Source: a virus (lineage: Duplodnaviria; Heunggongvirae; Uroviricota; Caudoviricetes). Taken from it: 39,433 nt of DNA. The stretch lies in IMG/VR virus record IMGVR_UViG_2597489870_000003; one strand, written 5' to 3'. Shown here in pieces: positions 2,015 to 29,773 of the stretch. Position 1 is the first letter of the stretch. Each line of letters starts with the position of its first letter. Made by a program: the position numbers and the translations under genes. The notes under the pieces are model-generated. The model saw only the letters and a list, made by a program, of their open reading frames with translations, ran no database searches and was not told where the DNA came from.

Positions 2015-2155
2015 TTACTGCTTACACTGTAAGAACGCCGCAAACTCCGCTCCCCAGAAGCTCATCCGTATTTCACACAGCGAACCGTGCAGCATCCAGA
2101 TGATGAGGATTACCGTCACGCAGAACGTGATGGCCGTAAGCGATTTTTGCGACAT
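2015..2155 (-). CDS. Hok/Gef-family type I toxin (small membrane peptide)
   Basis: 46-aa ORF not in the track (too short), translated by hand: MSQKSLTAITFCVTVILIIWMLHGSLCEIRMSFWGAEFAAFLQCKQ. Single hydrophobic helix, then SLCEIR and E-x-AAFL-x-CK motifs as in HokA/HokC; AAGGAG Shine-Dalgarno 8 nt upstream; hairpin directly after the stop. Confidence 0.65.
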   Translation of the reverse strand: MSQKSLTAITFCVTVILIIWMLHGSLCEIRMSFWGAEFAAFLQCKQ

Positions 2156-2344: not shown

Positions 2345-2605
2345 TTAATTCTGAGGTAAAGGCAAACTCATCTGATTGTTTCCCCTGTGTGAAGCTGGCA
2401 GCTCATGCCACGGGATACCTTCTGATGAGTGAACGCCGGAGGCGTGTTTCGATGTGAATTTATGGAAAGCTTCCAGTGTTGAGAAGCATACGCCGCATTC
2501 CAGGTTGTTACACTGGTAATACTTTTGCCGCACGGTGTTTGAATCATTTTCCGGACGACTGGTGCGGATACGGGCAGATGCGCCACAAAGCGGACAACGG
2601 AACAT
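2345..2605 (-). CDS. ogr: Ogr/Delta-family zinc-finger late-gene transcriptional activator
   Basis: N-terminus MFRCPLCG...RTSR...YYQCNNLECG matches P2 Ogr (MFHCPLC...RTSR...HQCQNVNC); four-Cys zinc finger. Confidence 0.85.
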   Translation of the reverse strand: MFRCPLCGASARIRTSRPENDSNTVRQKYYQCNNLECGVCFSTLEAFHKFTSKHASGVHSSEGIPWHELPASHRGNNQMSLPLPQN

Positions 2606-2647
2606 AGCGACCTCCCTTAACGTGGTGCTGCCGCTATTCTAAGTTGC

Positions 2648-3492
2648 TCACTCTGTTTCCGCTATCCATTCCGGGATTTTTGCCTCAAGCTCAAGCTGCG
2701 TGGTAAAGCCGCTGTTATCAATGGTGTGCCCGGCTTTTGCAATAATCCAGTCCTGATTATCAATCTCGCTTTTAAATCCTGTTACCGTGCCATGCATTTC
2801 GGGGTAGAGTTCTGCTCGTCCACGTGCCAGCGTGATGGAGAATGATGCGGCTCCGCGTTGTAGTTGTTGCCACTTTGCCGCCGCTGCGCGTCTTGCTGCC
2901 TGCTCGTTCTGATAAGTCTTGCGTAACACAAACACATTGCCTTCCGCGCCTTCCATATAATCACCTTCACGGCTGCTGCTTTTCTCTTTTTTCGGTTTTG
3001 GCGGTTTGCGGCGTTTCACGCTGACTTTTTTCTTTTTCCCGTAATTAAGATCAAGCCAGTAAGCGCGTACCCCCGTATACGCTTCGCGGTCAGCAATGCG
3101 GAACTGATGGCGATCGCCGCTGCTGCGTGTGATGGCGAACGATGGCAACGGCTGGCCCTGTGCGTTCACGCCACCGCCGGGCATGATGAATAACAGATTG
3201 CCGCTTTTTACCGTGGTGATTGCGCCCAGCATTTCCGCCATGCGCGTAAGGAAGGACATGTCGCTTTCTTCGGTCTGGTCGGCGTGGTCGATTTCGATAT
3301 CCATCAGCATTTCGCTGATTTGCGGTTTCAGACCATACCGATGAGCGATGGCGGATACCACACGCTCAACGGTCACATCATGCCAGGACACCTCACGTTT
3401 AACGTTAAATTCATCCCGAAAATCTGCGCTTCTGGCTGAAACAGTCAGCCTGTCCGGCGGTCCTTCGTGAGCGATTTCATCAACAATGTAAG
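2648..3492 (-). pseudogene. P2 gpD-like tail protein (late control D), C-terminal portion, separated from its N-terminus by IS30
   Basis: Translation ...SARSADFRDEFNVKREVSWHDVT...KRRKPPKPKKEK...EGDYMEGAEGNVF...FTTQLELE matches the P2 gpD C-terminal region; reading frame runs unbroken up to the IS30 boundary. Confidence 0.85.
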
Positions 3493-4713
3493 TGTAGATT
3501 CAAGTGGTCAACGCAACAGTTATGTGAAAACATGGGGTTGCGGAGGTTTTTTGAATGAGACGAACATTTACAGCAGAGGAAAAAGCCTCTGTTTTTGAAC
3601 TATGGAAGAACGGAACAGGCTTCAGTGAAATAGCGAATATCCTGGGTTCAAAACCCGGAACGATCTTCACTATGTTAAGGGATACTGGCGGCATAAAACC
3701 CCATGAGCGTAAGCGGGCTGTAGCTCACCTGACACTGTCTGAGCGCGAGGAGATACGAGCTGGTTTGTCAGCCAAAATGAGCATTCGTGCGATAGCTACT
3801 GCGCTGAATCGCAGTCCTTCGACGATCTCACGTGAAGTTCAGCGTAATCGGGGCAGACGCTATTACAAAGCTGTTGATGCTAATAACCGAGCCAACAGAA
3901 TGGCGAAAAGGCCAAAACCGTGCTTACTGGATCAAAATTTACCATTGCGAAAGCTTGTTCTGGAAAAGCTGGAGATGAAATGGTCTCCAGAGCAAATATC
4001 AGGATGGTTAAGGCGAACAAAACCACGTCAAAAAACGCTGCGAATATCACCTGAGACAATTTATAAAACGCTGTACTTTCGTAGCCGTGAAGCGCTACAC
4101 CACCTGAATATACAGCATCTGCGACGGTCGCATAGCCTTCGCCATGGCAGGCGTCATACCCGCAAAGGCGAAAGAGGTACGATTAACATAGTGAACGGAA
4201 CACCAATTCACGAACGTTCCCGAAATATCGATAACAGACGCTCTCTGGGGCATTGGGAGGGCGATTTAGTCTCAGGTACAAAAAACTCTCATATAGCCAC
4301 ACTTGTAGACCGAAAATCACGTTATACGATCATCCTCAGACTCAGGGGCAAAGATTCTGTCTCAGTAAATCAGGCTCTTACCGACAAATTCCTGAGTTTA
4401 CCGTCAGAACTCAGAAAATCACTGACATGGGACAGAGGAATGGAACTGGCCAGACATCTAGAATTTACTGTCAGTACCGGCGTTAAAGTTTACTTCTGCG
4501 ATCCTCAGAGTCCCTGGCAGCGGGGAACAAATGAGAATACAAATGGGCTAATTCGGCAGTACTTTCCTAAAAAGACATGTCTTGCCCAATATACTCAACA
4601 TGAACTAGATCTGGTTGCTGCTCAGCTAAACAACAGACCGAGAAAGACACTGAAGTTCAAAACACCGAAAGAGATAATTGAAAGGGGTGTTGCATTGACA
4701 GATTGAATCTACA
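3493..4713 (+). mobile_element. IS30 insertion sequence (1221 bp)
   Basis: Left end TGTAGATTCAAGTGGTCAACGCAACAG, right end ...CAGATTGAATCTACA; flanked by 2-bp direct repeat AG (3491-3492 and 4714-4715). Confidence 0.95.
3555..4706 (+). CDS. insI: IS30 transposase
   Basis: 383-aa ORF matching IS30 transposase as recalled (N-terminal HTH, DDE motif region). Confidence 0.95.
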   Translation: MRRTFTAEEKASVFELWKNGTGFSEIANILGSKPGTIFTMLRDTGGIKPHERKRAVAHLTLSEREEIRAGLSAKMSIRAIATALNRSPSTISREVQRNRGRRYYKAVDANNRANRMAKRPKPCLLDQNLPLRKLVLEKLEMKWSPEQISGWLRRTKPRQKTLRISPETIYKTLYFRSREALHHLNIQHLRRSHSLRHGRRHTRKGERGTINIVNGTPIHERSRNIDNRRSLGHWEGDLVSGTKNSHIATLVDRKSRYTIILRLRGKDSVSVNQALTDKFLSLPSELRKSLTWDRGMELARHLEFTVSTGVKVYFCDPQSPWQRGTNENTNGLIRQYFPKKTCLAQYTQHELDLVAAQLNNRPRKTLKFKTPKEIIERGVALTD

Positions 4714-4986
4714 AGTGCCTTTTTCTGTCAGCGGTTCTCCTTTCCAGCCAATGAGAACCGTCAGGCGCGCGCCCCGTGCCCGTGGCGGTAGCAGCAACTG
4801 ACCATCCGCATCATCCAGCGTGATGGTGAGCTGGTCCGCCTCAAATCCCCGGTTGTCGGTCAGTGACAGGCTCATCAGGCGCTCTGCCACGCCTGACAGC
4901 GTTTTACCCTCCGCGAGAATATCAAAATCCGGCATTTTTACGGGGTCTGTGCCCTGACTGAGCAATTGCATGGTGGTGTCGGTCAT
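4714..4986 (-). pseudogene. P2 gpD-like tail protein, N-terminal portion (upstream of IS30)
   Basis: MTDTTMQLLSQGTDPVKMPDFDILAEGK...LSLTDNRGFEADQL...IGWKG matches the gpD N-terminus; in frame with the C-terminal part once IS30 and one AG copy are removed. Confidence 0.8.
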
Positions 4987-5143: not shown

Positions 5144-6328
5144 ATGAGTGAAACTCGTTTTCATGGTGCCCGTGTTACGGAAAATACCGACCTGGTAACA
5201 GCGATTAACGATGTTGATTCCAGCGTTATCGGTATCGTGGCAACGGCGGATGATGCGGACGCGAAGCTGTTCCCGCTGAACAAGCCCACACTGCTGACCC
5301 GCGTCAATGACGTGCTGGGAAAATGCGGGACAACGGGGACGCTTTATCGTGCGCTTAAGGCCATCGCAGACCAGGTGAGCACAAAGGTGATCGTCGTTCG
5401 CGTGGCTGAACACAAAGAAGAAGACGGAAAAACGCAGGATCAACTGGTTATCGGTGGTTCTGAATCTGACGGCAGCTATACGGGGATGTATGCGCTGCTT
5501 GTTGCAGAGCAGGATGAAAGCATCGGATACCGTCCGCGTATTCTGGCCGCGCCGGAGCTGGACACGGAGGCGGTAACAAAATCCCTGTGCGTGATTGCGG
5601 GTAAACTGCGCGCGTTTGTGTATGCCTCATGTCACGGCTGTAACACGATGGCTGAGGCGATTACCTACCGCCAGAAATTCAACGAACGTGAGGTGATGCT
5701 CTTATGGCCGGACTTCATCGCCTACAACCCGAAAAGTGGCAAAAACGAAACGTTCCCCGCGCCTGCCTATGCGTGCGGCCTTCGTGCGTACATTGACCAT
5801 GAGCAGGGCTGGCACAAATCGCTGTCCAACGTTCCTGTTAAAAATGTGCTGGGAATGTCCAGGCATGTGTTCTGGTCGTTGCAGGCCGAAGACAGTGATG
5901 CCAACAGCCTCAACAACAAAGAAATCACGACCATTATTCGTCGCAACGGGTTCCGCTTCTGGGGCAACCGCACACCGGAAACGAACGCCTACATCTTTGA
6001 GGTGTATACCCGAACCGCACAGGTGCTGGCTGATTCAATTGCAGAAGCGCAGTTTGAAACCATCGACAGTCCACTGACGCCTGCGAACGTGAAGGATGTT
6101 ATCAGTGCCATCAGGGCAAAACTGGATTCACTGGTTACTGCCGGGAAACTGATTGGCGCGGAGTGCTGGTATGACGTGGTGGATAACAGCACCACGGATT
6201 TACGTCAGGGGCGTGTGCGTATTCGCTACAAATATACGCCTGTTCCGCCACTGGAAGACATGGAGCTTTACCAGACGTTTACTGATGAATACTTTGAACC
6301 TGCATTTGCGGTGCTGGGAGGTGCCTGA
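5144..6328 (+). CDS. Tail sheath protein (P2 gpFI-like)
   Basis: 394 aa; matches P2 FI along its length (ADDADA..FPLNKP, LRAF.Y, WPDF.A, GLRA.IDHEQGWHK.LSNV, RRNGFRFWGNRT, YTPVPPLE). Confidence 0.93.
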   Translation: MSETRFHGARVTENTDLVTAINDVDSSVIGIVATADDADAKLFPLNKPTLLTRVNDVLGKCGTTGTLYRALKAIADQVSTKVIVVRVAEHKEEDGKTQDQLVIGGSESDGSYTGMYALLVAEQDESIGYRPRILAAPELDTEAVTKSLCVIAGKLRAFVYASCHGCNTMAEAITYRQKFNEREVMLLWPDFIAYNPKSGKNETFPAPAYACGLRAYIDHEQGWHKSLSNVPVKNVLGMSRHVFWSLQAEDSDANSLNNKEITTIIRRNGFRFWGNRTPETNAYIFEVYTRTAQVLADSIAEAQFETIDSPLTPANVKDVISAIRAKLDSLVTAGKLIGAECWYDVVDNSTTDLRQGRVRIRYKYTPVPPLEDMELYQTFTDEYFEPAFAVLGGA

Positions 6329-6840
6329 TGGCTGTGCCAAAACATCTTCGCTTTTTTACGCTGTTTGTGGATGGTGAAAACGAAGTGGGTAAGGTGACGT
6401 CCGTCACTCTGCCTAAGCTGACGCGCAAAACCGACAGCTACCGGGGTGGTGGCATGATGGGTGCGGTAAGTATTGATCTCGGTCTGGACGACTCCGCGCT
6501 TGATGCGAGCTTTGTCATGGGGGGCGCAGTTCGTGAGCTGTTCCTGAAGTATGGCGGCACGATTGACGGCACGCTGCTGCGTTTTGCGGGTGAATACTAC
6601 ACCGATGCAGAAAGCGACCTGTATGAAGTCGAAATGCGCGGACGTGTGACGGAAATTGATATGGGGGAAGCCAAACAGGGCGAAGCCACATCACACACTT
6701 ACGCCATTAAAAACACCTACTACAAGCTGAGTGTTAACGATCGCCCGTTGTGGGAGATTGACCTGCTGAACTTCATTTACCGGAAGGACGGCAAGGACAT
6801 TGTGCCCGATCGCATCCGTTCCGCGCTTGGGCTTGGCTGA
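6328..6840 (+). CDS. Tail tube protein (P2 gpFII-like)
   Basis: 170 aa, start overlaps FI stop (ATGA); FII-like size and position. Confidence 0.85.
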   Translation: MAVPKHLRFFTLFVDGENEVGKVTSVTLPKLTRKTDSYRGGGMMGAVSIDLGLDDSALDASFVMGGAVRELFLKYGGTIDGTLLRFAGEYYTDAESDLYEVEMRGRVTEIDMGEAKQGEATSHTYAIKNTYYKLSVNDRPLWEIDLLNFIYRKDGKDIVPDRIRSALGLG

Positions 6841-6894
6841 TAAGTAATATGCAGGCGGCGCAGTGCGTCGCCTCTGACTGAAAGGAGTTTCCTG

Positions 6895-7260
6895 ATGAAA
6901 GAGACGAAAAACATCGATACCGAAAACACGGTCGTTGCTGACACTGTGAAAGAAACCAGTGAGCGTGGCGTAAAACTTACCCAACCAATTGAGCGAGGCG
7001 GCGAAAAAATCACGTATGTGGAGATCACCGGAGCTATTGAGCAGGCTGGATCTCTGCGAGATTTGTCGTTGTCTGATGTGCTGAATCTGAAAGCGGAATC
7101 CATGTTTACGCTGCTGTCACGCGTGACATCACCGCGACTGGATGAAGTGACGATCAAAAAAATGGCATCCCGTGACTTTATTCAGTTATGTGTGGTTGCC
7201 GTAAATTTTTTGAGCGGTGCGGACTCTGGCGGGAAGAACGAACAGGCGACGGAAGCCTGA
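6895..7260 (+). CDS. Tail assembly chaperone (P2 gpE-like)
   Basis: Position between tube and tape-measure genes; contains slippery TTTTTTG heptamer at 7206-7212. Confidence 0.8.
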   Translation: MKETKNIDTENTVVADTVKETSERGVKLTQPIERGGEKITYVEITGAIEQAGSLRDLSLSDVLNLKAESMFTLLSRVTSPRLDEVTIKKMASRDFIQLCVVAVNFLSGADSGGKNEQATEA

Positions 7261-7424
7261 TCACGGTTGTGTGCTTTGAGCACATAGAAGACTTTGTGGC
7301 AGATATTGCCGTTATTTTTAACTGGTCGCCCGCCGAAATCTTCATGATGACGCCCGGCGAAGTGGTTAGCTGGCGTGAGCGGGCGGCACTTCGCAGCGGG
7401 AATGCAGACAATGAAGACTCTTGA
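6895..7424 (+). CDS. gpE+E' -1 programmed frameshift product (tail assembly chaperone, extended form)
   Basis: Zero-frame codons AAT TTT TTG give slippery heptamer T TTT TTG; the -1 frame stays open from 7212 to the stop at 7422-7424 and overlaps the tape-measure start. Confidence 0.6.
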
Positions 7425-10218
7425 TATCCGGGTCGCTTTCAGCGCCGTTGACAGGCTGACCCGGCCTGCCGAAAACGCCCGCCGCCTGATGGGGCAGTTT
7501 GGTGACTCCATCCAGCGAACGCAGGGGGCGATCAAAAATCTCGAGCGTCAGGCGCGTTCATTTGAGCGCGCCCGCGACGCTGTCAGTAAAGCGGATGCGG
7601 GTATCGTGAAAGCACGACGCCAGCTTAACGCCCTTAATCAGTTACAACGCACGGGTACAGTGCTCAGCGAAAAGCAACAAAAGCTGATGCAGCAGTTAAG
7701 CACCCGGCTTGAACGCCTGAATGAATCGCGCATACGGGAAATTCAGAAAATGCGGGAGCTTGGCGGAGAGCTGAAACGCCACGGCATTTCCCTGACAGGC
7801 AGCGATAACACCATTCAACAGGCCATCAGGCGCACCGAACAGTACAACAACCAGCTTGAACGCGAACGGCAGTCGCTTGCGCGTGTAACGCGGGCGCGTG
7901 AGCGGTATTCGCGTGCGCAGGAAACAGCGGGAAAACTGAAAACAGGTGGTGTACTGGCAATTGGTGCGGCAGCGGCGGGCGGCTATGCTGCCGGGCGTTT
8001 TTTGCAGCCCGCAATCGGGTTCGGGAAAGAGATGTCCCGCGTTCAGGCGCTGACGCGAATCGACCAGAACAGCCCGCAGTTTAAGGCGCTGCGTGAGCAG
8101 GCGTTAAAACTTGGCTCTGAAACGCAGTTCACCGCAGGCGATGCCGCCAGTGGGCAGGCATTTCTTGCAATGGCTGGCTTCACACCGCAGGCCATTCAGG
8201 CTGCGCTTCCCGGCGTGTTGAGCATGGCAACGGCTGGCGGTATGGATCTCGGCGAGACGGCGGATATTGGCTCAAATATCCTGACGCAGTTCGGCCTTTC
8301 TGCTGACCAGATGGACCGGGTCGGTGACACACTCACTGCAGCGTTTACCCGTACCAACACTGACCTTCGCGCACTGGGCGAAACCATGAAATATGCCGGT
8401 CCGGTGGCGGGTAAGCTGGGAATATCGCTGGAGCAGGCTGCAGCGATGGCTGGCGTGCTGGCGAATATGGGTATCAGAGGGAGTGATGCCGGGACGGCAA
8501 TGCGTGCCAGCCTGGCTCGTCTGGCATCACCGCCAAAGGCAGCAGCAGAGGCGCTGAAAGAGCTGGGCGTGTCCGTTTCTGACGCGAACGGCAAAATGCG
8601 CCCGATGGAAGATCTGCTGGCTGACCTTTATAAAGCCACCCGCAAATACGGGGAAGTTGACCGGGTATCGTTCTTTAAGGATATTGCCGGAGAAGAGGCT
8701 TTCACATCATTTATGGCCCTCGTTGATGCGGCAGGTGACGGCTCCTTACCCAAACTGAGAAAAGAACTTGAAGGCGCGCGCGGTGAGGCTGAACGCACAG
8801 CAAAGGTTATGGCCAACAACCTTGACGGCGATCTGAAATCACTCGGCAGTGCATGGGAAGGGGTGCGCATCCGCATTGCAGATCTGATTGACGGTCCGCA
8901 GCGTTCTGTCACGCAGTGGCTCACGCGGGTGGTATCGAAGGTGACGGCGCTGGCGCAGGCCCATCCGGCACTGACGCGCCAGCTACTGGTTGCAGGCGGT
9001 GCTCTGCTGGCAATGACTGCAACCATAGGCTCGTTGTCGCTGGCTATTGGTGTGCTTGCTGGCCCACTGGCAAAACTGCGTCTTGGTTTTTCCCTCCTGA
9101 CCGGATCATTGAATGTTGTCAGGGTTCTGCCTGCATTATGGGGAATGGTGACGGGTTCCATTTCGTTACTGGGAGGCGCTATCGGGGCGCTGTTCAGTCC
9201 GGTCGGATTGATTGCTGCTGCGTTTGTGGCTGCGGCGGTTCTCATCTGGAAATACTGGGAACCCATCAAGGCGTTTTATGCAGGGGTGTTCAGTGGGATT
9301 ATGGAACGGCTGGCTCCGTTGCGCGAAACCTTTGAACGGTTTGGCCCTGTTTTTGACGCAATCGGAAGCGGGATCAGCCAGGTGTTTAACTGGTTTAAAT
9401 CGCTGCTGTCACCGATGGAGTCCAGTAAGGAAACGCTGGATAAATGTACCAGTGCTGGCGAGATATTCGGTAACGTTCTTGGCGGTGCGTTACAGCTTGT
9501 TCTGACACCTGCAAAAATGCTACTGGATACGCTGGCGTGGATACTTGAAAAACTTGGCGTCCTTCCGGATGAAGCTGAAAGGGCGCGCAAGAAAATCGAA
9601 GACGCACAGCGTGCGGCCATTCTTCAGGACAAGGTTGCCTTGCTTCAGGGGGACCTGGCGAAAATCAATCCGCCGAAGCCTGTGGAAAATGGCAATGGCA
9701 CCGGAGGTGATAAACCCAAAGACAACAAACCACTCACAGACAGCAATACCGGTACGCTACGCAGACTCAGCAAAATTGCTGATAACACAGGTAAGCTGGT
9801 TGATGAGACGAAAAAACGCATTGGCCCCGGTGATATTGTCTTTAAGAACCTGCCCCGCGCACTTGCTGTTCGTGGGGAGTGGCAGGAGCGGAAGATTGCG
9901 CAGGTCAGTAAGCCTGCCCCCGCAATTACTATCACACCCGTGGTTCCGGCTCCGCTGCCTCCGGCGCTGGTCCCTGTTGTTGCGGCCAGCTCCCGCCCGG
10001 TGGCGGAGGCTATACGATCGCCAGTGGCATCAGTTCCTGCAAATTCCCGTAACCGGGAGCCTGTTGCCTCCGGATTTGGCGGTGAAATTCATGTTCATCT
10101 GCATAACGTTGTTACACAGAATCCCCGCGAACTGGCGAAACTGGTCGGTGAAATGGTCAGGGCAGAAATGGAACGGCGCGTCCGTGCCGGACGTGGCAGT
10201 TTTTACGATAAAGATTGA
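7411..10218 (+). CDS. Tail tape measure protein (P2 gpT-like)
   Basis: About 935 aa, coiled-coil N-terminus, Gly/Ala-rich hydrophobic central segment, position after E/E'. Start could be 7375, 7402 or 7411. Confidence 0.9.
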   Translation: MKTLDIRVAFSAVDRLTRPAENARRLMGQFGDSIQRTQGAIKNLERQARSFERARDAVSKADAGIVKARRQLNALNQLQRTGTVLSEKQQKLMQQLSTRLERLNESRIREIQKMRELGGELKRHGISLTGSDNTIQQAIRRTEQYNNQLERERQSLARVTRARERYSRAQETAGKLKTGGVLAIGAAAAGGYAAGRFLQPAIGFGKEMSRVQALTRIDQNSPQFKALREQALKLGSETQFTAGDAASGQAFLAMAGFTPQAIQAALPGVLSMATAGGMDLGETADIGSNILTQFGLSADQMDRVGDTLTAAFTRTNTDLRALGETMKYAGPVAGKLGISLEQAAAMAGVLANMGIRGSDAGTAMRASLARLASPPKAAAEALKELGVSVSDANGKMRPMEDLLADLYKATRKYGEVDRVSFFKDIAGEEAFTSFMALVDAAGDGSLPKLRKELEGARGEAERTAKVMANNLDGDLKSLGSAWEGVRIRIADLIDGPQRSVTQWLTRVVSKVTALAQAHPALTRQLLVAGGALLAMTATIGSLSLAIGVLAGPLAKLRLGFSLLTGSLNVVRVLPALWGMVTGSISLLGGAIGALFSPVGLIAAAFVAAAVLIWKYWEPIKAFYAGVFSGIMERLAPLRETFERFGPVFDAIGSGISQVFNWFKSLLSPMESSKETLDKCTSAGEIFGNVLGGALQLVLTPAKMLLDTLAWILEKLGVLPDEAERARKKIEDAQRAAILQDKVALLQGDLAKINPPKPVENGNGTGGDKPKDNKPLTDSNTGTLRRLSKIADNTGKLVDETKKRIGPGDIVFKNLPRALAVRGEWQERKIAQVSKPAPAITITPVVPAPLPPALVPVVAASSRPVAEAIRSPVASVPANSRNREPVASGFGGEIHVHLHNVVTQNPRELAKLVGEMVRAEMERRVRAGRGSFYDKD

Positions 10219-10224
10219 GGAGTC

Positions 10225-10719
10225 ATGGCCATGATGATGATCTACGGCATGTTTGTTTTTGAGCTGCGCACATTGCCGCATCAGCAGTTACAGCAAAACA
10301 AAAGCTGGCGGCATGTGAAAAATGAGCGCGTAAACCGCTCAGCAAGCTGGCAGTATATCGGTGCAGGTGATGATCGCATCGTGCTTTCTGGCGTGCTTTA
10401 TCCTGAAATTACAGGTGGCGAAGTGTCGCTTTCGCTGCTGACCACGCAGGCATATACAGGACGCCCCTGGCCTCTGATTGATGGTGTCGGGCAGATTTAC
10501 GGCATGTATGTCCTGACCGGAACGAATACGACCCGTTCCGAGTTTGATCGCTACGGTAAGGCGAAAAAGATAGAATTTTCACTGACACTTGAACGCTGTG
10601 ATGAGGATTTGCGGGAGCGCCTGCAATCCTCATCATTCAGCGATATGCTGTCCGGCTTCAAAGATAAGGTGACATCATCTCTTAACAGCGCGGCCAGTTC
10701 AGTTAAAGGGATGTTCTGA
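10225..10719 (+). CDS. Tail protein (P2 gpU-like)
   Basis: 164 aa; MAMMMIYGMFVFELRTLPHQQLQ... matches the gpU N-terminus. Confidence 0.85.
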   Translation: MAMMMIYGMFVFELRTLPHQQLQQNKSWRHVKNERVNRSASWQYIGAGDDRIVLSGVLYPEITGGEVSLSLLTTQAYTGRPWPLIDGVGQIYGMYVLTGTNTTRSEFDRYGKAKKIEFSLTLERCDEDLRERLQSSSFSDMLSGFKDKVTSSLNSAASSVKGMF

Positions 10720-10726
10720 TTTAACA

Positions 10727-10765
10727 CAAAAACCGCTAATGGTCAGATTAGCGGTTATTTTGTTT
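10727..10765. terminator. Bidirectional terminator between gpU (+) and invertase (-)
   Basis: AAAAACCGCTAATGGTCAGATTAGCGGTTATTTTGTTT: stem flanked by A-run and T-run. Confidence 0.7.
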
Positions 10766-11342
10766 CCTGACTCTTCTCAATTGTTCCGCTTGGTTCTCCT
10801 GCGGGGTGGTAACGATAAATCGTCGATATACCAATGCCGTAAATTATTGCCAGTTGTTTTCTGTCGTGACCGTTTTTAATCAGCCTTGCTATTTGCTCAT
10901 GCTGTTCTTTTGTCAGCTTCGGTCGACGTCCGCCTGTGCGCCCCCGTGCGCGCGCTGCCGCCAGTCCGGCCAGTGTACGTTCAACAATTAATTCACGTTC
11001 CATTTCAGCCAGGGCCCCCATCACGTGGAAGAAAAAACGCCCCATTGGAGAAGATGTATCTATGCTGTCGGTCAGACTGCGAAAATTAATCCCTCGCTCC
11101 CGTAGTTCCCCGACGAGAGAAATCAGATGTTTCATGCTTCGCCCGAGGCGATCCAGTTTCCAGACAACCAGCGTGTCACCTTTTTGAAGGCGCTTTAAAG
11201 CGCGTTTTAATCCCGGTCGGTCTGTCTTTGTCCCGCTTAATTTATCTTCAAATATCTGTTCACATCCTGCACAAACAAGAGCGTTTCGTTGCAGGTCTGT
11301 ATTCTGGTCATTTGTTGATACCCTTACATAGCCAATCAGCAC
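10755..11342 (-). CDS. Serine recombinase, DNA invertase (Gin/Pin/Cin/Hin family)
   Basis: VLIGYVRVSTNDQNTDLQRNAL...VWKLDRLGRSMKHLISLV...C-terminal HTH (IGISTIYRY); catalytic Ser in the VRVST motif. Likely GTG start at 11342 (track ORF starts at a TTG at 11360). Confidence 0.92.
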   Translation of the reverse strand: MLIGYVRVSTNDQNTDLQRNALVCAGCEQIFEDKLSGTKTDRPGLKRALKRLQKGDTLVVWKLDRLGRSMKHLISLVGELRERGINFRSLTDSIDTSSPMGRFFFHVMGALAEMERELIVERTLAGLAAARARGRTGGRRPKLTKEQHEQIARLIKNGHDRKQLAIIYGIGISTIYRYHPAGEPSGTIEKSQETK

Positions 11343-11396
11343 ACTGAATCTCCCGTCCAAAAGCGCAAATCATGCCATGCAGGCCAGAAACGGCCA

Positions 11397-11422
11397 TTAT
11401 CTAAAACCTCGGTTTACAGGAA
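11397..11422. repeat. gix/hix-like 26-bp inversion crossover site (proximal to invertase)
   Basis: TTATCTAAAACCTCGGTTTACAGGAA; inverted partner at 14324-14349; close to the Gin/Hin crossover-site consensus. Confidence 0.85.
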
Positions 11423-11446
11423 ACGGTAAACAGGGCCAGGAACGCC

Positions 11447-12283
11447 GTGCAAAAGAATGGCGATACCTTGTCCGGTGGGCTTACTTTTGAAAACGACTCA
11501 ATCCTTGCCTGGATTCGAAATACTGACTGGGCGAAGATTGGATTTAAAAATGATGCCGACAGCGATACTGATTCATACATGTGGTTTGAAACAGGCGACA
11601 ACGGCAATGAATATTTCAAATGGAGAAGCAAACAAAGCACCACAACAAAAGACCTGATGACGCTGAAATGGGATGCACTAAATATTCTTGTTAATGCCGT
11701 CATTAATGGCAGCCTTGGAGTTGGTACGACGAATGCGTTAGGTGGTAGCTCTATTGTTCTTGGTGATAATGATACCGGATTTAAACAGAATGGAGACGGT
11801 ATTCTTGATGTTTACGCTAATAGTCAGCGAGTATTCCGCTTTCAGAATGGAGTTGCTATTGCTTTTAAAAACATTCAGGCAGGTGATAGTAAAAAAATCT
11901 CGCTATCCAGCTCCAACACCTCCACAAAGAATGTAACGTTTAATTTATGGGGTGCTTCAACCCGTCCAGTAGTTGCAGAGTTAGGCGATGAGGCAGGATG
12001 GCATTTCTATAGCCAGCGAAATACAGATAACTCGGTAATATTTTCTGTTAACGGTCAGATACAGCCCAGCAACTGGGGGAATTTTGATTCACGCTATGTA
12101 AAAGATGTTCGCCTGGGTACGCGAGTTGTTCAATTGATGGCGCGTGGTGGTCGTTATGAAAAAGCCGGACACGCAATTACCGGATTAAGAATCATTGGTG
12201 AAGTAGATGGCGATGATGAAGCCATCTTCAGACCAATACAAAAATACATCAATGGCACATGGTATAACGTAGCACAGGTGTAA
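11447..12283 (+). CDS. Alternative tail-fibre C-terminal (receptor-binding) cassette, currently unfused
   Basis: The frame stays open back into the crossover site (...LGLQETVN encoded at 11407-11430), so inversion would fuse it in frame to the constant N-terminal part of the fibre gene. Confidence 0.8.
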   Translation: MQKNGDTLSGGLTFENDSILAWIRNTDWAKIGFKNDADSDTDSYMWFETGDNGNEYFKWRSKQSTTTKDLMTLKWDALNILVNAVINGSLGVGTTNALGGSSIVLGDNDTGFKQNGDGILDVYANSQRVFRFQNGVAIAFKNIQAGDSKKISLSSSNTSTKNVTFNLWGASTRPVVAELGDEAGWHFYSQRNTDNSVIFSVNGQIQPSNWGNFDSRYVKDVRLGTRVVQLMARGGRYEKAGHAITGLRIIGEVDGDDEAIFRPIQKYINGTWYNVAQV

Positions 12284-12286
12284 ATT

Positions 12287-12814
12287 ATGCAGCATTTAAA
12301 AAATATTAAGTCAGGAAATCCAAAAACAAAAGAGCAATATCAGCTAACAAAGAATTTTGATGTTATCTGGTTATATACAGAAGACGGTAAAAACTGGTAT
12401 GAGGAAGTAAATAGCTTTCAGGAAGACACCATAAAGATTGTTTACGACGAAAATAATATTATTGTTGCCATAACCAAAGATGCCTCAACGCTTAATCCCG
12501 AAGGCTTTAGTGTCGTTGAGATTCCAGATATAACAGTCAATCGTCGTGCCGATGATTCAGGGAAGTGGATGTTTAAGGACGGAACTGTGGTTAAGCGGAT
12601 TTATACAGCAGACGAACAGCAACAACAGGCCGAATCACAAAAGGCCGCATTGCTTTCCGAAGCTGAATCAGTCATCCAGCCACTGGAACGCGCTGCCAGG
12701 CTGAATATGGCAACAGACGAGGAGCGCACACGACTGGAAGCATGGGAACGCTACAGTGTTCTGGTCAGCCGTGTGGATACGGCAAATCCTGAATGGCCAC
12801 AAAAGCCTGAATAA
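12287..12814 (+). CDS. Tail fibre assembly chaperone (alternative copy, gpG/U'-like)
   Basis: 175 aa; about 60% identical to the oppositely oriented paralogue at 12843-13376 ([22 protein letters not shown]...). Confidence 0.85.
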
Positions 12815-12842
12815 AAATTAAGGCCCGCTATCGGGCCTTGTC
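12815..12842. terminator. Bidirectional terminator between the two convergent fibre-assembly genes
   Basis: AAGGCCCGCTATCGGGCCTT hairpin. Confidence 0.6.
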
Positions 12843-13376
12843 TCATTCAGGTTGTTCGGGAAATGTTACTGGCAGGCTGGAAGTGTCTGTAGATTCGACT
12901 TTCTGCGCAAAGAGTATCCACTCTGTTAATTTTTGTTTACTCTCGTCGGAAATGATGCCCAGCCGTAGCTGTGAGTCCCATAACTGGGTTTTATCCCTGA
13001 CAAGTTGCAACAGGCTTTGCTTTTCATTCTCTGCCTGCTGCCTCTGCTCTTCCCCGGTATAAGTTCGCTTTATCACTACGCCATCTTTGAACATCCATTT
13101 ACCCGAAATATCAGCCCGGCGATTTGCTGTAATATCAGGTAATTCAACGACGCTTGCGCCTTCTGGATTAATTGCTGAAACATCCTTTTCAATACAAATA
13201 ATAACGCCGTTACGGTCATAGACCATTTTCAACGTATCAGGCTGAAAGTTCTTTTGTTCCTCATACCAGTTTTTTCCATCATCTGAATAAAGCCATTTGA
13301 TGTTAAATTGTTTCGTTAGCTGGTATTGCTCTTTTGTTTTAGGGTTGCCAGCAGTAATGTTTTTTAAGTGCATCAT
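12843..13376 (-). CDS. Tail fibre assembly chaperone (P2 gpG-like), active orientation
   Basis: 177 aa directly downstream of the fibre gene. Confidence 0.88.
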   Translation of the reverse strand: MMHLKNITAGNPKTKEQYQLTKQFNIKWLYSDDGKNWYEEQKNFQPDTLKMVYDRNGVIICIEKDVSAINPEGASVVELPDITANRRADISGKWMFKDGVVIKRTYTGEEQRQQAENEKQSLLQLVRDKTQLWDSQLRLGIISDESKQKLTEWILFAQKVESTDTSSLPVTFPEQPE

Positions 13377-13378
13377 AA

Positions 13379-15736
13379 TTAAATACTCCCCGCGTTATAC
13401 CACCTTCCATTAATGCAATACTGAATTGGCCTTGCCTGAGTTGTATCAATTAATTCATCACGGTTTCCGTTAACTGAACCCGTAACGACATAACCTGACC
13501 TGTCAGACCAGCCGGGACCATTCCATGTCTGAACAGATGACAGACCGCCCAGGCGAATACCTGTAATAAACCTTGAGTTACATTCTGCCTGCGTATATGC
13601 ACCAACATCCCCCGCAGAGGGTTTGCGGGTTGTGGTGTAAAACTCTGACCAGTTAGCTTCAAAGCCATAACCATCACGCGCTGAACGATAAAAGATACCG
13701 CCGTTTTTATAATTCACGCGGAACTGTACAGCAGGGCAACTCCCCGCATTCATATTAAAGTGGAGGATTAATGTCGATGCGCCACTGATATCTGCATCAT
13801 AAACGCCGCTATTCCAGTTCCAGCCAACAGCTTTATCATTTGCAACCCTGCTTCCTGTTTGCCCTAAAGCAAATGCAGGCTGCTGGTTTTTCGTGTTGTA
13901 GTCTCGTCGCCAGCCAGGAGCATAAGCATCACCATGATTAATATAGGTGAATTGAGCGTTAGTAATTCCGCCACCGCTGGATGTACTCGGCGTAGTAACG
14001 CGTATGGTCATTGCGCCGCGAGTGCCAATAACTTCCACCACAGCACCTGCAAGACAAATATTTCCGCAACCTGTATCTGTAATGACCTTATTGTTTGCAT
14101 AAGCCCATGAGCCTTTGCACATCCAGTAAGGATGGTTAAATGCCCCCTGACTCTCCAGCCACGAAATGAATTGTGCGGTTGTCCAGGTCTGACTATCGCC
14201 ACCAATATTCAGCCATGCGCTATATGCGCGGCAGGCACCAATATTTTTGGTGAAGGTATCTTTTCCTGGAATATCTGCGCCGTTCTGTTTTTTCTGTAAT
14301 GCACCAGAAGCCTGATTTACCGTTTCCTGTAAACCGAGGTATTCGATAACAGCGGCAACGGTCGATTTCGCAAGAATATCCCGCCCGACTTTTGTCAGGG
14401 TTGCCAGGCTGGCGACATCATTCCCCGTAAAATACGGAAACTTGTCTGCCGCAGTAGCAAGCCCGGCCAGCGCCGTCAGGGTGGCATCTTTCGGTTGCTT
14501 ACCCGCAAGCGCTTTAGTCATGGTGGTCGCAAAATTCGGGTCGTTTCCCAGCGCCGCCGCTAACTCGTTCAACGTATTCAGTGCGTCAGGCGACGAGTCT
14601 ACAAGTGCGGCAATCGCGGCCATCACATAAGCCGTGCTTGCGATCTGAGTATTATTAGTCCCTTTTGGCGTTGTTGGCGTTCCGGTCAGTGCAGGACTGT
14701 TTAAGGGCGCTTTCTTGTTCGTTTCATCCATTACCGCCTTAACAGCTTTTGGCGTCGCAGCCAGCGTTTCAGATGTGCTGTTAGTGGCGCTACTGAGCTG
14801 AACTATCCCTTTTCGTGCCGTCGTTGCGTCCTGAGCGGTATATTTTGCGTTAGCAAGGTCATATGCGGCCTTTACTGCTTTCGGCGTTGCAGCCAGCGTT
14901 TCAGATGTGCTGTTAGTGGCGCTACTGAGCTGAACTATCCCTTTTCGCGCAGTGGTAGCGTCCTGTGCGGTGTATTTGCCATTAGCCAGGTCATATGCCG
15001 CCTTAACAGACTTTGGCGTTGCCGCAAGCGTTTCAGACGTGCTGTTGGTGGCGCTACTGAGCTGAACTATCCCTTTCCGCGCAGTGGTTGCGTCCTGTGC
15101 GGTGTATTTGCCATTAGCCAGGTCATATGCTGCCTTAACAGCCTTAGGTGTCGCAGCCAGCGTTTCAGATGTGCTGTTAGTGGCGCTGCTAAGTTGAACA
15201 AAGCCTTTTGCGGTCAGCGAGGCGTCCGGGTGACGTCGTGACTGTTCATGCTCTTTCAGTTTGTCATCCACGTAATCCACTGTGGCCATTACCATGGTGT
15301 TATCCACGGTAAGCGCCATAGTGGCAGTGCTGGATACGGTCAGAATGGTGCGAAATGTTTGTGCACGTCCTGACCCTTCGGCAACGGTTGGCTTGTAACT
15401 TTCGGCAGTATTGCCTACTGCGATTAAATCGCCGTGCTCATCAAACACACCAATTTCCCGGATCCAGAATCCGCCCGTTTCAGGAGGAATAACCAGCTCT
15501 GCAATAATGCGGTTCTGATGTGTTGCGTCCAGGATGACGCGATTAACAGTGTGTCGCCACACCTCATGCACAAGACGGGTCTGCTTACTGTCTGGCGAGG
15601 GCAACGTGCCGCCGCCGTCACCCACGGCCATATGAGTCAGGCGGACCGGTTTACCATCTGGTGTGGCTGCCTGCGCTAATTTTTTTTCACCCGTATCGGT
15701 GATAACGGTTTTAAATTTTCGTGTTGTGGTACTCAT
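13379..15736 (-). CDS. Tail fibre protein (P2 gpH-like) with invertible C-terminal domain
   Basis: 785 aa; N-terminus MSTTTRKFKTVITDTGEKKLA...MAVGDGGG matches P2 H; four 44-aa tandem repeats; crossover site lies inside the gene at 14324-14349. Confidence 0.93.
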   Translation of the reverse strand: MSTTTRKFKTVITDTGEKKLAQAATPDGKPVRLTHMAVGDGGGTLPSPDSKQTRLVHEVWRHTVNRVILDATHQNRIIAELVIPPETGGFWIREIGVFDEHGDLIAVGNTAESYKPTVAEGSGRAQTFRTILTVSSTATMALTVDNTMVMATVDYVDDKLKEHEQSRRHPDASLTAKGFVQLSSATNSTSETLAATPKAVKAAYDLANGKYTAQDATTARKGIVQLSSATNSTSETLAATPKSVKAAYDLANGKYTAQDATTARKGIVQLSSATNSTSETLAATPKAVKAAYDLANAKYTAQDATTARKGIVQLSSATNSTSETLAATPKAVKAVMDETNKKAPLNSPALTGTPTTPKGTNNTQIASTAYVMAAIAALVDSSPDALNTLNELAAALGNDPNFATTMTKALAGKQPKDATLTALAGLATAADKFPYFTGNDVASLATLTKVGRDILAKSTVAAVIEYLGLQETVNQASGALQKKQNGADIPGKDTFTKNIGACRAYSAWLNIGGDSQTWTTAQFISWLESQGAFNHPYWMCKGSWAYANNKVITDTGCGNICLAGAVVEVIGTRGAMTIRVTTPSTSSGGGITNAQFTYINHGDAYAPGWRRDYNTKNQQPAFALGQTGSRVANDKAVGWNWNSGVYDADISGASTLILHFNMNAGSCPAVQFRVNYKNGGIFYRSARDGYGFEANWSEFYTTTRKPSAGDVGAYTQAECNSRFITGIRLGGLSSVQTWNGPGWSDRSGYVVTGSVNGNRDELIDTTQARPIQYCINGRWYNAGSI
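14324..14349. repeat. gix/hix-like 26-bp inversion crossover site (inside tail fibre gene)
   Basis: TTCCTGTAAACCGAGGTATTCGATAA, the inverted partner of 11397-11422 (23 of 26 positions). Confidence 0.85.
14719..15246. repeat. Four tandem 132-bp coding repeats within the tail fibre gene
   Basis: AGCGTTTCAGA(T/C)GTGCTGTT(A/G)GTGGCGCT recurs at 14763, 14895, 15027 and 15159; encodes repeated QDATTARKGIVQLSSATNSTSETLAATPKAVKAAYDLANGKYTA. Confidence 0.9.
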
Positions 15737-15738
15737 GC

Positions 15739-16269
15739 TTAATCGTCCGGATAAATGGTAATGACTTCACCGTCGTAAGTTGCTGCCGCCGCGAAAATAT
15801 CCCCCGGAATTTCCTGAATGATATTCAGCCCTGTCATGTGGCGGCTGACTGGGCGGGCATCAGCAATCAACCGCTCCATTTCCAGATACATTTCCTCCGT
15901 CACGCCACTGTCCAGCGTGCCGACTTCAACGGTAAATGTTCCCGGTTCTCCGCCGAATTCCCACCACTCAGACACGCGAATGAGGTATCCCAGCGGCTCA
16001 ATGGCCCGGCGCAGTGCGCTGATGGTTCCCTTGTGTCGGTGTATCAGCCATGCATCACGAATAACCTGTCGCTTTGTCTCTTCCGGCCAGTTGCGATCCC
16101 AGCGGTCAACGGAAAATGCCCAGGCGAGATAAGGCAGCAGATGCACCGGGCAGGTGTCCGGTGACCACAGCGTGTTGAGGTCTACCGGGATGTCTGTAAT
16201 GCGCGCTCCGACAGCTTCGGCGCAACGCATGAAACTGCTGGCTGATGGCGGTAACAGTGAATTACTCAT
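15739..16269 (-). CDS. Baseplate assembly protein (P2 gpI-like)
   Basis: Size and position between J and H; start uncertain (track ORF extends to 16302). Confidence 0.8.
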   Translation of the reverse strand: MSNSLLPPSASSFMRCAEAVGARITDIPVDLNTLWSPDTCPVHLLPYLAWAFSVDRWDRNWPEETKRQVIRDAWLIHRHKGTISALRRAIEPLGYLIRVSEWWEFGGEPGTFTVEVGTLDSGVTEEMYLEMERLIADARPVSRHMTGLNIIQEIPGDIFAAAATYDGEVITIYPDD

Positions 16270-17158
16270 TACGCCCACCTTCGCTGATGGTGAATGACTC
16301 ACAGCGCGCCGCCTGTATGTCGCTGATGGCCATATTCTGTGTGGGTTCGATTATCTCCACGCGTTGCACGCCGTGTACATGCAGTGCGGCAGCAATGGCG
16401 GACAACGCCACGTCCTGACCGATAAGCCCCTGTTCAGCCAGCCACTTCCTGAATGACGATTCCGCCGCGGCCAGAATAGGTTCGGATTCCGGGCCGGGGT
16501 AAAAGTACAGTTTTGCATTCAGCCGCCATGTCACGATTCTGGCGCTCTGTACCGTCAGGCGGTCGGCCACCGGGCGGGTATCCTCTGCATTCAGAACGGC
16601 GCGAACGGTATTAAGCAACGCCTCCGTTGCTGTGCCGTCGCCTTCAGTGGACAGAATGGAAACCGTCACATTTGCCGGAGACGGACTGATAGCCCGCGCA
16701 TCACGCACCAGACCGCTGGCGCTGCGGGCAAAATACTCGTATGCGCCTGACGGGCCAGCAACGCTCAGGCCGTCATACGCCCGTTGCGCCCGCAGTCTCA
16801 GCGAGGTGTCGCTCTCCATCACCGCGTCGGTGGTATCCGTTGCCGGAGTGATGGTCAGGCGCTTTGTGTTCATATTGCCCGCGAGGTTGTCCAGGTCTGT
16901 CCCGGCGCTGTGGCTTAACATGCAGGCGCGTGCCCCCTCATTGACCCGCTGGCGTAACAGCATTTCACGAAACGCTGTTGTCTGGGCGATAACGTTCAGG
17001 GGTTCCGATTCCAGCTCCAGCGCGGCGGAGACGGCTTCACGCTGTTCGGCGGGATAGGACGCAATCATCATGGCCTTTGTGTCAGCCAGAATTGCCTCAA
17101 AGTCAGGCTCCGCGATGATGGCGGGTTCCGGTAACTGGGAAAGGTCAACGGCAGGCAT
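16262..17158 (-). CDS. Baseplate protein (P2 gpJ-like)
   Basis: 298 aa; position and size match P2 J. Confidence 0.85.
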   Translation of the reverse strand: MPAVDLSQLPEPAIIAEPDFEAILADTKAMMIASYPAEQREAVSAALELESEPLNVIAQTTAFREMLLRQRVNEGARACMLSHSAGTDLDNLAGNMNTKRLTITPATDTTDAVMESDTSLRLRAQRAYDGLSVAGPSGAYEYFARSASGLVRDARAISPSPANVTVSILSTEGDGTATEALLNTVRAVLNAEDTRPVADRLTVQSARIVTWRLNAKLYFYPGPESEPILAAAESSFRKWLAEQGLIGQDVALSAIAAALHVHGVQRVEIIEPTQNMAISDIQAARCESFTISEGGRNE

Positions 17159-17161
17159 GAT

Positions 17162-17512
17162 TTACTCCCTCAGCGTGATGGTTAATTCAACATTCTGCAT
17201 GGTCTGCATGACAGTGCCCGACAGCGTCACCCCGGCGCGGCCTCCCGCTTTCCAGACAACGTCGATGGCATCCAGGGCAATGCGGGGTTCCCATCGTGTC
17301 AGCGCAATCACGGCAGCACTCATGCATTGCAGACGCGTGGTGTTATTCATGGGTTCGTCAATCAAATCAGGCACAAGGCTGCCATATTCCCGTCGCATAA
17401 CCCGGCTTGCCAGCGGGGTGGTCAGGATATCCCTGACTGACTGTTTCAGGTGCTCCATATCGTTCAGGTTTCCCGTCCCGTCCGGATTCATTCCTGTGTA
17501 GCGGGTTGTCAC
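17162..17512 (-). CDS. Baseplate wedge protein (P2 gpW-like, gp25-like)
   Basis: 116 aa; MTTRYTGMN... resembles the gpW N-terminus. Confidence 0.85.
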   Translation of the reverse strand: MTTRYTGMNPDGTGNLNDMEHLKQSVRDILTTPLASRVMRREYGSLVPDLIDEPMNNTTRLQCMSAAVIALTRWEPRIALDAIDVVWKAGGRAGVTLSGTVMQTMQNVELTITLRE

Positions 17513-18090
17513 TGCGGGCCTCCTGTCGAATCGCTGCCGCCTTTCACGCCACCGTGTTTATGCGTATGCACGGTAATGCCGTTTGAGGTGAAGTTGCCGC
17601 CGCTGTGCGTGATATTGCCGCTCATCTTTCCTCCTTTTGTGACGTCAAGCGTCGCCGTTCTCAGAAGGTCTGTGCATTCCACGACGGGCGTGTCCAGTGT
17701 CACGCTGACGGATGCCTGCAGGGTGGCTGTTTTCATGCCGCTGGCGCTCAGTGCGCCTGCGTCCGCGTCGTAGCGGAACACCGCGCCGTCCGGCGCGCTG
17801 ATCACGATTTCTTTCAGGCTTTTGCCGGGTGCCGGATTGGCATCACTCCACAGGCTGCCAATTATCATGGCGGTTTCCGGGTTGCCGCCAATGCAGGCAA
17901 TTACCACCTGTTCGCCGGGTGATGGCGGCAGCCACACATTGAAGGCTCCCGCGCGCGTGGTGTTCCAGCGCAACCAGCCTGTTTCCAGTTCGCCGCTGCG
18001 AACGCGCACGCGCCAGGACTTCTCATCAACTTCAGAGATGATCCCGGTGCGGATGATATTGCTCAGCAGTCGCATGAGTTCTGCGCTCAC
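17509..18090 (-). CDS. Baseplate spike protein (P2 gpV-like)
   Basis: 193 aa; conserved position and size. Confidence 0.85.
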   Translation of the reverse strand: MSAELMRLLSNIIRTGIISEVDEKSWRVRVRSGELETGWLRWNTTRAGAFNVWLPPSPGEQVVIACIGGNPETAMIIGSLWSDANPAPGKSLKEIVISAPDGAVFRYDADAGALSASGMKTATLQASVSVTLDTPVVECTDLLRTATLDVTKGGKMSGNITHSGGNFTSNGITVHTHKHGGVKGGSDSTGGPQ

Positions 18091-29769: not shown

Positions 29770-29773
29770 TGGT

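Follow-up and report, generated by a model that had tools for sequence, protein, structure and literature searches.

A probable Gin-type host-range switch in a P2-family prophage of Escherichia coli H10407

The G segment of phage Mu is bounded by 34-nt inverted repeats; the constant part of the fibre gene lies outside it, two convergent cassettes, each made up of a fibre tip and its chaperone, lie inside, and the invertase gene is found just beyond one end and is transcribed away from the segment. Recombinases of the same family and crossover sites of the same kind are known from the C segments of P1 and P7 (Cin), the P segment of e14 (Pin), Hin of Salmonella and Fin of Fels-2. In P1 the C segment has inverted repeats that are far longer, and what Hin turns round is a promoter, not a coding end. 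In culture, P2-like and Mu prophages of E. coli undergo inversions of this kind (PMC4272514), and one such inversion has been confirmed with long reads (PMC9881135).

The DNA analysed here, referred to as the window, is a stretch of 39,433 nucleotides from a P2-family prophage of the ETEC strain E. coli H10407. At 11397–14349 it carries what is very probably a site-specific inversion system of the Gin type that switches phage host range, in a prophage of the Xuanwuvirus/P88-like kind. Switches of this type, resembling the Mu G segment, are already well known; the locus matters little as a discovery, and is a classic programmed inversion that was correctly recognised from raw sequence. The G-segment layout proposed for it in an initial annotation was borne out: the constant fibre part is outside the segment, two opposed tip-plus-chaperone cassettes are inside, the invertase gene is just outside and transcribed away, and the 34-nt repeats contain the same 26-bp core as those of Mu. 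The locus departs from Mu in the constant part of the fibre and in the entire tail module, the genes of which are of the P2 type and not of the Mu type.

Crossover sites and invertase

The arms of the inverted repeat (11397–11430 and 14316–14349) are 34 nt long, differ by two mismatches (94% complementary), and are separated by 2885 nt, so that the invertible segment, 11397–14349, measures 2953 bp. This length had been proposed earlier together with 26-bp repeats at 11397 and 14324; the coordinates and the length were reproduced, and the repeat was found to extend to 34 nt. The invertase-proximal gix-type site, TTATCTAAAACC-TC-GGTTTACAGGAA, occupies 11397–11422 on the plus strand, and from there the repeat runs on to 11430. 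The site internal to the fibre gene, which reads TTATCGAATACC-TC-GGTTTACAGGAA on the minus strand, occupies 14324–14349, and the repeat runs on to 14316. The 26-bp pattern occurs in the window exactly twice, at these positions and in these opposite orientations, compared with an expectation of 0.00 in 100 shuffles.

Alignment of the repeats to Mu gix, a check suggested with the initial annotation, gave one mismatch for the site at 11397–11422 and two for that at 14324–14349, all of them in the outer half-sites. Each site consists of two imperfect 12-bp half-sites around a 2-bp core; this core, TC, is the same in both sites and, like the inner half-sites, matches Mu gix exactly. Compared with Mu, the A-tract in the outer half of the fibre-side site carries an A-to-T substitution, which could lower invertase binding; relatives with the same fibre-side half-site occur in both orientations.

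The gene beside the segment, at 10755–11342 on the minus strand, encodes a serine DNA invertase of the Gin/Cin/Pin/Hin family, as had been predicted. It starts 54 bp outside the left site, and its transcription points away from the segment. The list of open reading frames begins it with a TTG at 11360, whereas RefSeq (WP_000905056.1) and alignment with Mu gin place the start at a GTG at 11342, which gives a protein of 195 aa. This protein contains the Pfam Resolvase (1.3e-50) and HTH_7 (1.6e-13) domains. It shows 86% identity with Mu Gin across 181 aa and 97.9% with the invertase of phage P88; its top PDB matches, at E about 1e-100, are the Mu Gin structures 4M6F and 3UJ3. The catalytic motif YVRVS(9)TNDQ is intact, with VLIGYVRVS(9)T identical to Gin; Ser9, the mutation of which had been named as a finding that would speak against the switch, is present and unaltered. 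The C-terminal DNA-binding (HTH) domain diverges from that of Gin, with about 49% nucleotide identity beyond nt 420.

In Mu the recombinational enhancer is located in the 5′ part of gin. In its first 200 nt (11143–11342, minus strand) the invertase gene of the window matches Mu gin at 196 positions (98%); the enhancer sequence of Mu has thus almost certainly been kept, and this region presumably holds a Fis-dependent recombinational enhancer (sis). A scan of the 5′ part for the degenerate Fis motif gave the same matches in Mu and in the window, the motif being too loose to locate the enhancer.

Alternative fibre C-termini

The fibre gene (ORF 13379–15736, minus strand, 785 aa) crosses the right site at 14324, in agreement with the earlier reading. 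Its constant N-terminal part, of the P2 gpH type (14350–15736, minus strand), lies outside the segment and contains the Pfam Phage_tail_fib N-terminal domain and four Phage_fiber_2 repeats; at 14734–15199, 3.5 tandem copies of a 132-bp (44-aa) unit were detected with TRF. Over its N-terminal 248 aa (residues 7–254) this part shares 72% identity with P2 gpH, and just upstream of the site the two are nearly identical. The number of 44-aa repeats varies, the fibre of phage 503458 being 661 aa long compared with 785 aa in the window.

Inside the segment, the expressed variable C-terminus of the fibre (314 aa; 13379–14323, minus strand) shares 95.9% identity with the variable part of Mu S′; the expressed tail-fibre assembly chaperone (12843–13376, minus strand; Caudo_TAP, 1.3e-33) is 95% identical to Mu U′. 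Judged by this identity of 95–96%, the active cassette is of the Mu S′/U′ type, equivalent to the G(−) state of Mu.

The opposing cassette is silent. Its alternative fibre C-terminus (11423–12283, plus strand), the frame of which is open from 11405 and which is annotated from a GTG at 11447, is 96.5% identical in amino acid sequence to the C-terminal 286 aa of P2 gpH. It was also considered as the variable part of Mu S, and this was rejected at an identity of just 46%. The cognate silent chaperone (12287–12814, plus strand; Caudo_TAP, 9.7e-36) is 94% identical to Mu U and 90% to P2 gpG, and the two chaperones share 55% identity. A terminator-like hairpin (12820–12839, minus strand) separates their convergent genes; it consists of an 8-bp stem with six GC pairs followed by a T-run on the minus strand.

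The initial annotation held that the cassette at 11447–12283 is open in frame back into the 11397 site and shares a junction peptide with the active gene, and translations across both sites agree with this. The silent-cassette frame reads ...II*NLGLQETVNRARNAVQKNGD and the active gene ...VIEYLGLQETVNQASGALQ, with the junction peptide LGLQETVN common to both. The silent frame is open through the crossover centre; its sole closure is a TAA at 11402–11404 in the outer half-site, which is left behind on inversion. Inversion in silico produces a single uninterrupted fibre ORF of 757 aa. With the two Caudo_TAP genes, this fusion substantiates the proposal of two alternative in-frame C-termini, each accompanied by its cognate chaperone. 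The RefSeq "hypothetical protein" in the silent cassette is accordingly to be read as an alternative 3′ end of the fibre gene.

In the mechanism proposed, invertase dimers would bind the two 26-bp gix-type sites and, with the assistance of Fis at the enhancer that the invertase gene carries in its 5′ portion, both sites would be cut at the central TC dinucleotide; strand rotation and religation would then leave the 2.95-kb segment inverted. We infer the dependence on Fis and the enhancer, the cleavage chemistry and the receptor specificities by analogy with the Mu/P1/Hin paradigm. Because the fibre promoter and the N-terminal 471 codons lie outside the segment, either orientation would join the constant part in frame to one of the two receptor-binding C-termini, with the matching chaperone directly downstream. 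In the state seen in the window the Mu S′/U′-type pair would be expressed; after inversion the fibre would be essentially P2 gpH, and the chaperone of the gpG/U type. Since one tip is 96% identical to Mu S′ and the other 96.5% identical to the P2 gpH tip, the two orientations are expected to confer different host ranges on the virions. With one tip like that of Mu G(−) and the other like that of P2, it would also be possible to predict which hosts an intact relative such as P88 can reach in each state.

Orientations in natural genomes

Among complete E. coli genomes, 100 match the orientation of the window (at least 80% coverage) and 86 match the orientation obtained by inversion in silico. 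In the prophages of DS26-1 and E2980, which are 99.4–99.6% identical, the outer half-sites TTATCT.. and TTATCGAAT.. stay with the flanks, and everything inward of ...GGTAAA is exchanged, which places the breakpoint within the 24-nt identical core of the sites. The DS26-1 locus encodes the identical invertase protein, WP_000905056.1. The first ~38 kb of the DS26-1 record, including the chromosomal genes tcyJ to pgsA, recur at its end; a single DNA preparation therefore yielded two assembled copies of the locus, one in each orientation. A genome with two prophages was considered as an explanation and rejected. The duplicated part contains some 8 kb of chromosomal genes and runs across the start and end of the record, which identifies it as an overlap that the assembly left untrimmed. 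What an assembly gives for a locus of this type is a consensus snapshot taken from a mixed population, and in the DS26-1 record both states are visible. The initial annotation had allowed that only one orientation might ever be observed; both were found, in the 100 and 86 genomes and in the DS26-1 assembly.

The H10407 assembly has one orientation only, and its chromosome has 10 places similar to the switch region. This single orientation would be expected if the switch were an inherited relic that no longer inverts in H10407, the invertase being silent or the altered fibre-side half-site unbound. According to the annotation, gene D is interrupted by IS30, and there is an IS1 close to the portal gene; because of the split gene the prophage is defective. 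The fibre-side outer half-site departs from Mu at two positions, and P2 keeps a frozen site relic without an invertase. We nevertheless consider a relic improbable: the invertase has an uninterrupted ORF, retains Ser9 and matches Mu in the 5′ region of its gene, and both orientations are known from prophages that share this invertase protein and these two half-sites, with the two found together in the assembly of one isolate. The H10407 switch itself probably still flips. The copy in H10407 is probably unable to make tails, since gene D is split by IS30, and its host-range function is probably moot, since the prophage is defective; what this rules out is a change in the host range of virions from the H10407 copy alone, not the flipping.

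It is very unlikely indeed that the inversion is carried out by RecA-dependent homologous recombination between the 34-nt repeats, with the invertase incidental. Inverted repeats can in principle recombine, and the breakpoint mapping resolves the exchange no further than the 24-nt identical stretch; 24 nt of uninterrupted identity is, however, at or below the minimum for efficient RecA recombination. The near-equal numbers of the two states among the genomes and their mixture in one culture imply frequent flipping, and the repeats are bona fide gix sites next to a Gin orthologue.

That the locus is a true multi-site shufflon or a Min-type system, in which crossover sites and fibre variants would each number more than two, is scarcely credible: a three-site version exists in a P2-like prophage of EPEC (PMC4272514), but here there are just two cassettes between the sites, and a search of the whole 39-kb window with the 26-bp pattern gave no third crossover site at up to three mismatches. 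The name "shufflon" used in the initial annotation has to be dropped, since the R64-type shufflon consists of multiple segments with more than two short repeats acted on by the Rci tyrosine recombinase, whereas the window has a serine recombinase and two sites.

Relatives and prophage context

The Gin-type switch is present as the same module, in the same context, in Escherichia phage P88 and other phages and prophages of Xuanwuvirus (Peduoviridae), such as 503458, 500465-2 and P884B11. Their invertases are 97–99.5% identical to that of the window and their segments about 93% identical; the gene order is the same, with gpU convergent with the invertase, and the records annotate the genes as DNA invertase, tail fiber protein and chaperones. 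The H10407 copy differs from these relatives in its IS30 and IS1 insertions. Parts of the P1 and P7 C segments are 90–96% identical in DNA to the segment in the window. P2 has the same N-terminal fibre domain and the same baseplate and tail genes, but is without an invertase and a second cassette, Z/fun being in that position. Its gpH carries TTATCGAATATCTCGGTTTACAGGAA, a relic of a gix-type site at the same codon position as the fibre-side site in the window.

Gix-mediated cassette exchange between phages is an old hypothesis. The pairing at this locus of P2 gpH/gpG-type and Mu S′/U′-type cassettes, together with the near-intact site kept in P2 gpH, makes exchange in trans conceivable. Tentatively, and with more doubt than confidence, the gix site in the fibre gene may be regarded as a portable junction for cassette exchange between unrelated phages, at which Gin-family invertases of co-resident prophages would move receptor-binding cassettes among P2-, Mu- and P1-type genomes; the locus in the window would then be a captured intermediate.

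The switch had been described as placed in a P2-type tail module. As regards gene content this stands, since the baseplate, fibre, sheath, tube, tape-measure, gpU and gpD genes are all annotated in the window, with a Pfam match of 1.5e-38 for gpU. It does not extend to the order and strand of the gene blocks, which are those of the Xuanwuvirus phage 503458: the FI-FII-E-E′-T-U block is on the strand opposite to V-W-J-I-H-G and D-ogr, whereas in P2 FI-FII-E-T-U-D have the same direction as H and G. Two readings of the FI-to-U block (5144–10719), as another invertible segment and as something generated by the invertase, were rejected; it is without flanking inverted repeats. Because its order is common to phage 503458 and the intact DS26-1 prophage, its orientation is a fixed lineage trait. 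The convergent gpU and invertase genes, which end at 10719 and 10755, are separated by a bidirectional terminator-like hairpin (10731–10756; inverted repeat I6), with a 10-bp stem and T-runs on both strands.

Crossover sites and the cassettes between them

The tail-fibre gene of the prophage, an open reading frame of 785 aa (13379-15736, minus strand), spans the right-hand one of two gix sites. Its constant part (14350-15736, minus strand) and the operon upstream of it lie outside the segment bounded by the sites (11397-14349, 2953 bp); inside are two convergent tip-plus-chaperone cassettes, with a hairpin between them at 12820-12839. A repeat search returned inverted arms at 11397-11430 and 14316-14349, 34 nt each, 94% complementary and spaced 2885 nt apart. 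The initial annotation was right about the presence of these repeats, but not about their length, which it put at 26 bp. In the phage Mu reference (NC_000929, with the G-segment boundaries taken from its annotation), gix at both ends of the G segment is TTATCCAAAACC-TC-GGTTTACAGGAA. In the window, the invertase-side half-site is TTATCTAAAACC... and the fibre-side one TTATCGAATACC.... By this alignment both sites are gix: mismatches to Mu are confined to the outer half-sites, and there are none in the inner half-sites or the central TC. Identity extends over eight more bases beyond the 26-bp site, so that the repeat reaches 34 nt, as it does in Mu.

Within the window the 26-bp pattern has just two occurrences, 11397-11422 (+) and 14324-14349 (-); 100 shuffles gave an expectation of none. 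A multi-site system is therefore unlikely, and the name shufflon given to the segment earlier does not apply to a serine recombinase with two sites only.

The active gene is read through the right site as VIEYLGLQETVNQASGALQ, and the frame of the silent cassette through the left site is II*NLGLQETVNRARNAVQKNGD. The stop codon (TAA, 11402-11404) belongs to the outer half-site and stays behind on inversion. When the constant part was joined in silico to the silent cassette within the site, a single open reading frame of 757 aa resulted. The fibre fusion is thus in frame in either state, as had been proposed for the alternative cassette. The change from TTATCCAAAACC in Mu to TTATCTAAAACC in the window is what creates this TAA, and the silent frame is consequently closed to read-through from the invertase side.

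The active tip (13379-14323) matches the variable part of Mu S' at 95.9% identity and the active chaperone (12843-13376) matches Mu U' at 94.9%, which puts the window in the state equivalent to Mu G(-). For the silent chaperone (12287-12814), identity is 93.7% with Mu U and 90% with P2 gpG. The silent tip (11423-12283) has 46% identity to the Mu S variable part, compared to 96.5% with the C-terminal 286 residues of P2 gpH. The segment is of the Mu type, as first described, but its second cassette is derived from P2.

The constant part is also like P2 gpH, with an N-terminal collar domain followed by Phage_fiber_2 repeats. Gene H of P2 holds a near-intact gix-type site, TTATCGAATATCTCGGTTTACAGGAA (4838-4863 of the P2 record, L007), at codons matching the fibre-side site of the window. 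Taken together, these similarities indicate that the inverted locus would encode essentially the P2 fibre, with P2 gpH as the counterpart of the inverted state. P2, unlike the prophage, has neither an invertase nor a second cassette, and looks like a version frozen in the inverted state that is minus both.

Within the constant part, a 132-bp unit encoding a 44-aa Phage_fiber_2 repeat is present 3.5 times in tandem at 14734-15199. The fibres of close relatives are 661, 760, 785, 788 and 804 aa long, which suggests that repeat copy number varies, altering the length of the fibre shaft.

The invertase

The left site is adjoined by an intact orthologue of Gin, a serine invertase of 195 aa (10755-11342, minus strand; GTG start as in RefSeq and Mu gin) with Resolvase and HTH_7 domains. 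Over 181 residues it shares 86% identity with Gin, and its best matches among solved structures are Gin 4M6F and 3UJ3 (E about 1e-100). The neighbourhood of the nucleophile, YVRVS9TNDQ, is that of Gin, and the catalytic domain differs at few positions only. The Mu enhancer is located in the 5' part of gin. Since the first 200 nt of the two genes are 98% identical, the enhancer sequence is almost certainly kept in the window, as a presumed enhancer. Identity is about 89% when the first 420 nt are compared, and falls to about 49% beyond, in the 3' third of the gene (10755-10922). The invertase is thus a mosaic, with a C-terminal HTH DNA-binding domain from another member of the family. The variant is common to P88 and its relatives (97-99.5% identical).

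In Gin the linking serine is Ser9, and the wild-type enzyme requires Fis (PMC3575834). By the Gin/Hin paradigm, invertase dimers on the two sites would form a synapse with the Fis-bound enhancer, on supercoiled DNA. They would then cut the central dinucleotide, with Ser9 forming phosphoserine links, and religate after a rotation of 180 degrees. Judging by homology, the two states would confer receptor specificities of the Mu G(-) type and of the P2 type.

Both orientations in nature

Both states of the segment occur in nature. When the window and its in-silico inverted configuration were searched against complete E. coli genomes at a coverage of at least 80%, 100 genomes matched the former and 86 the latter. 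Among near-identical prophages, those of H10407, ETEC6, E70, E300010 and one copy in DS26-1 have the orientation of the window; in E2980 (99.6%) and in the remaining DS26-1 copy (99.4%) the segment is inverted. Alignment of eight junctions showed that the flanks and outer half-sites are fixed and that all inward of ...CCTCGGTTTACAGGAAACGGTAAA is swapped, the signature expected of exchange at the site core. Inversion mediated by RecA is unlikely.

In the DS26-1 record (NZ_CP035879.1), every gene of the first ~38 kb recurs at a constant offset in the final ~38 kb. The two copies were considered as separate prophages; this was rejected, as the duplicated stretch includes the chromosomal genes tcyJ, dcyD, tcyL, tcyN, sdiA, uvrY, uvrC and pgsA and tRNAs, and is an untrimmed circular overlap. 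One DNA preparation thus yielded two assemblies of a single locus, with the segment in opposite orientations. DS26-1 and H10407 have an identical invertase protein (WP_000905056.1). The evidence that inversion is ongoing is indirect but strong, and it is unlikely that the segment is an inactive fossil. The public "complete" DS26-1 assembly, with its ~38 kb of untrimmed terminal overlap, also has many frameshifts.

Co-existing orientations at e14 have been detected and confirmed by PCR, and EPEC E2348/69 has inversions in one Mu prophage and two P2-like ones, among them a version with three repeats (Goldberg et al., 2014; PMC4272514). Genes for tail fibres and for their assembly are enriched among programmed inversions, and long reads confirmed an inversion of a Mu-like fibre in an E. 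coli prophage (Milman et al., 2023; PMC9881135). In the records of P88 and its relatives, the genes of the module are named "DNA invertase" and "tail fiber protein". The kind of feature is therefore not new, and effectively it was known in this lineage as well. With the changes made here to the term, the repeat length and the second cassette, the observations and coordinates of the initial annotation were all correct, and its reading as a fibre switch of the Mu G-segment type is supported.

The prophage and its condition in H10407

At 100% identity, the window corresponds to the reverse complement of 2131222-2170654 of the E. coli ETEC H10407 chromosome (NC_017633.1), where the P2-family prophage adjoins pgsA and a tRNA-Gly/Cys/Leu cluster. 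RefSeq genes include those for capsid, terminase, lysis, baseplate (V, W, J, I), fibre, sheath, tube, tape-measure, gpU, gpD and ogr. Its nearest named phages are Xuanwuvirus (Peduoviridae): P88, 503458, 500465-2 and P884B11.

In H10407 the prophage is degraded. Gene D is interrupted by an IS30 (transposase at 3555-4706), which leaves an N-terminal fragment at 4714-4986 and a C-terminal one at 2648-3448 (both minus strand), and an IS1 (27123-27820) adjoins the portal gene. The intact DS26-1 prophage, 99.4% identical, lacks both. The H10407 copy probably cannot produce tails, and the switch there likely flips without effect on the phage. Its invertase could act in trans on segments of other prophages; 10 places on the H10407 chromosome resemble this region.

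The FI-FII-E-E'-T-U block (5144-10719) is on the plus strand, opposite to V-W-J-I-H-G (10755-18090) and D-ogr (2345-4986). As a result, the gpU and invertase genes are convergent, and a 157-bp spacer lies between the divergent genes FI and D. The corresponding genes of P2 share a single direction, whereas here the FI-to-U block is reversed. A search for inverted repeats flanking 5144-10719 found none. Xuanwuvirus phage 503458 and the intact DS26-1 prophage have the same gene order; the reversal is a fixed rearrangement of the lineage, which implies that gene D has its own late promoter.

The genome also has plasmid-like maintenance functions: ParM-type segregation genes and a partitioning/stability gene beside the replication endonuclease gene (29458-30733, minus strand), and a Hok/Gef toxin gene beyond ogr (2015-2155, minus strand).
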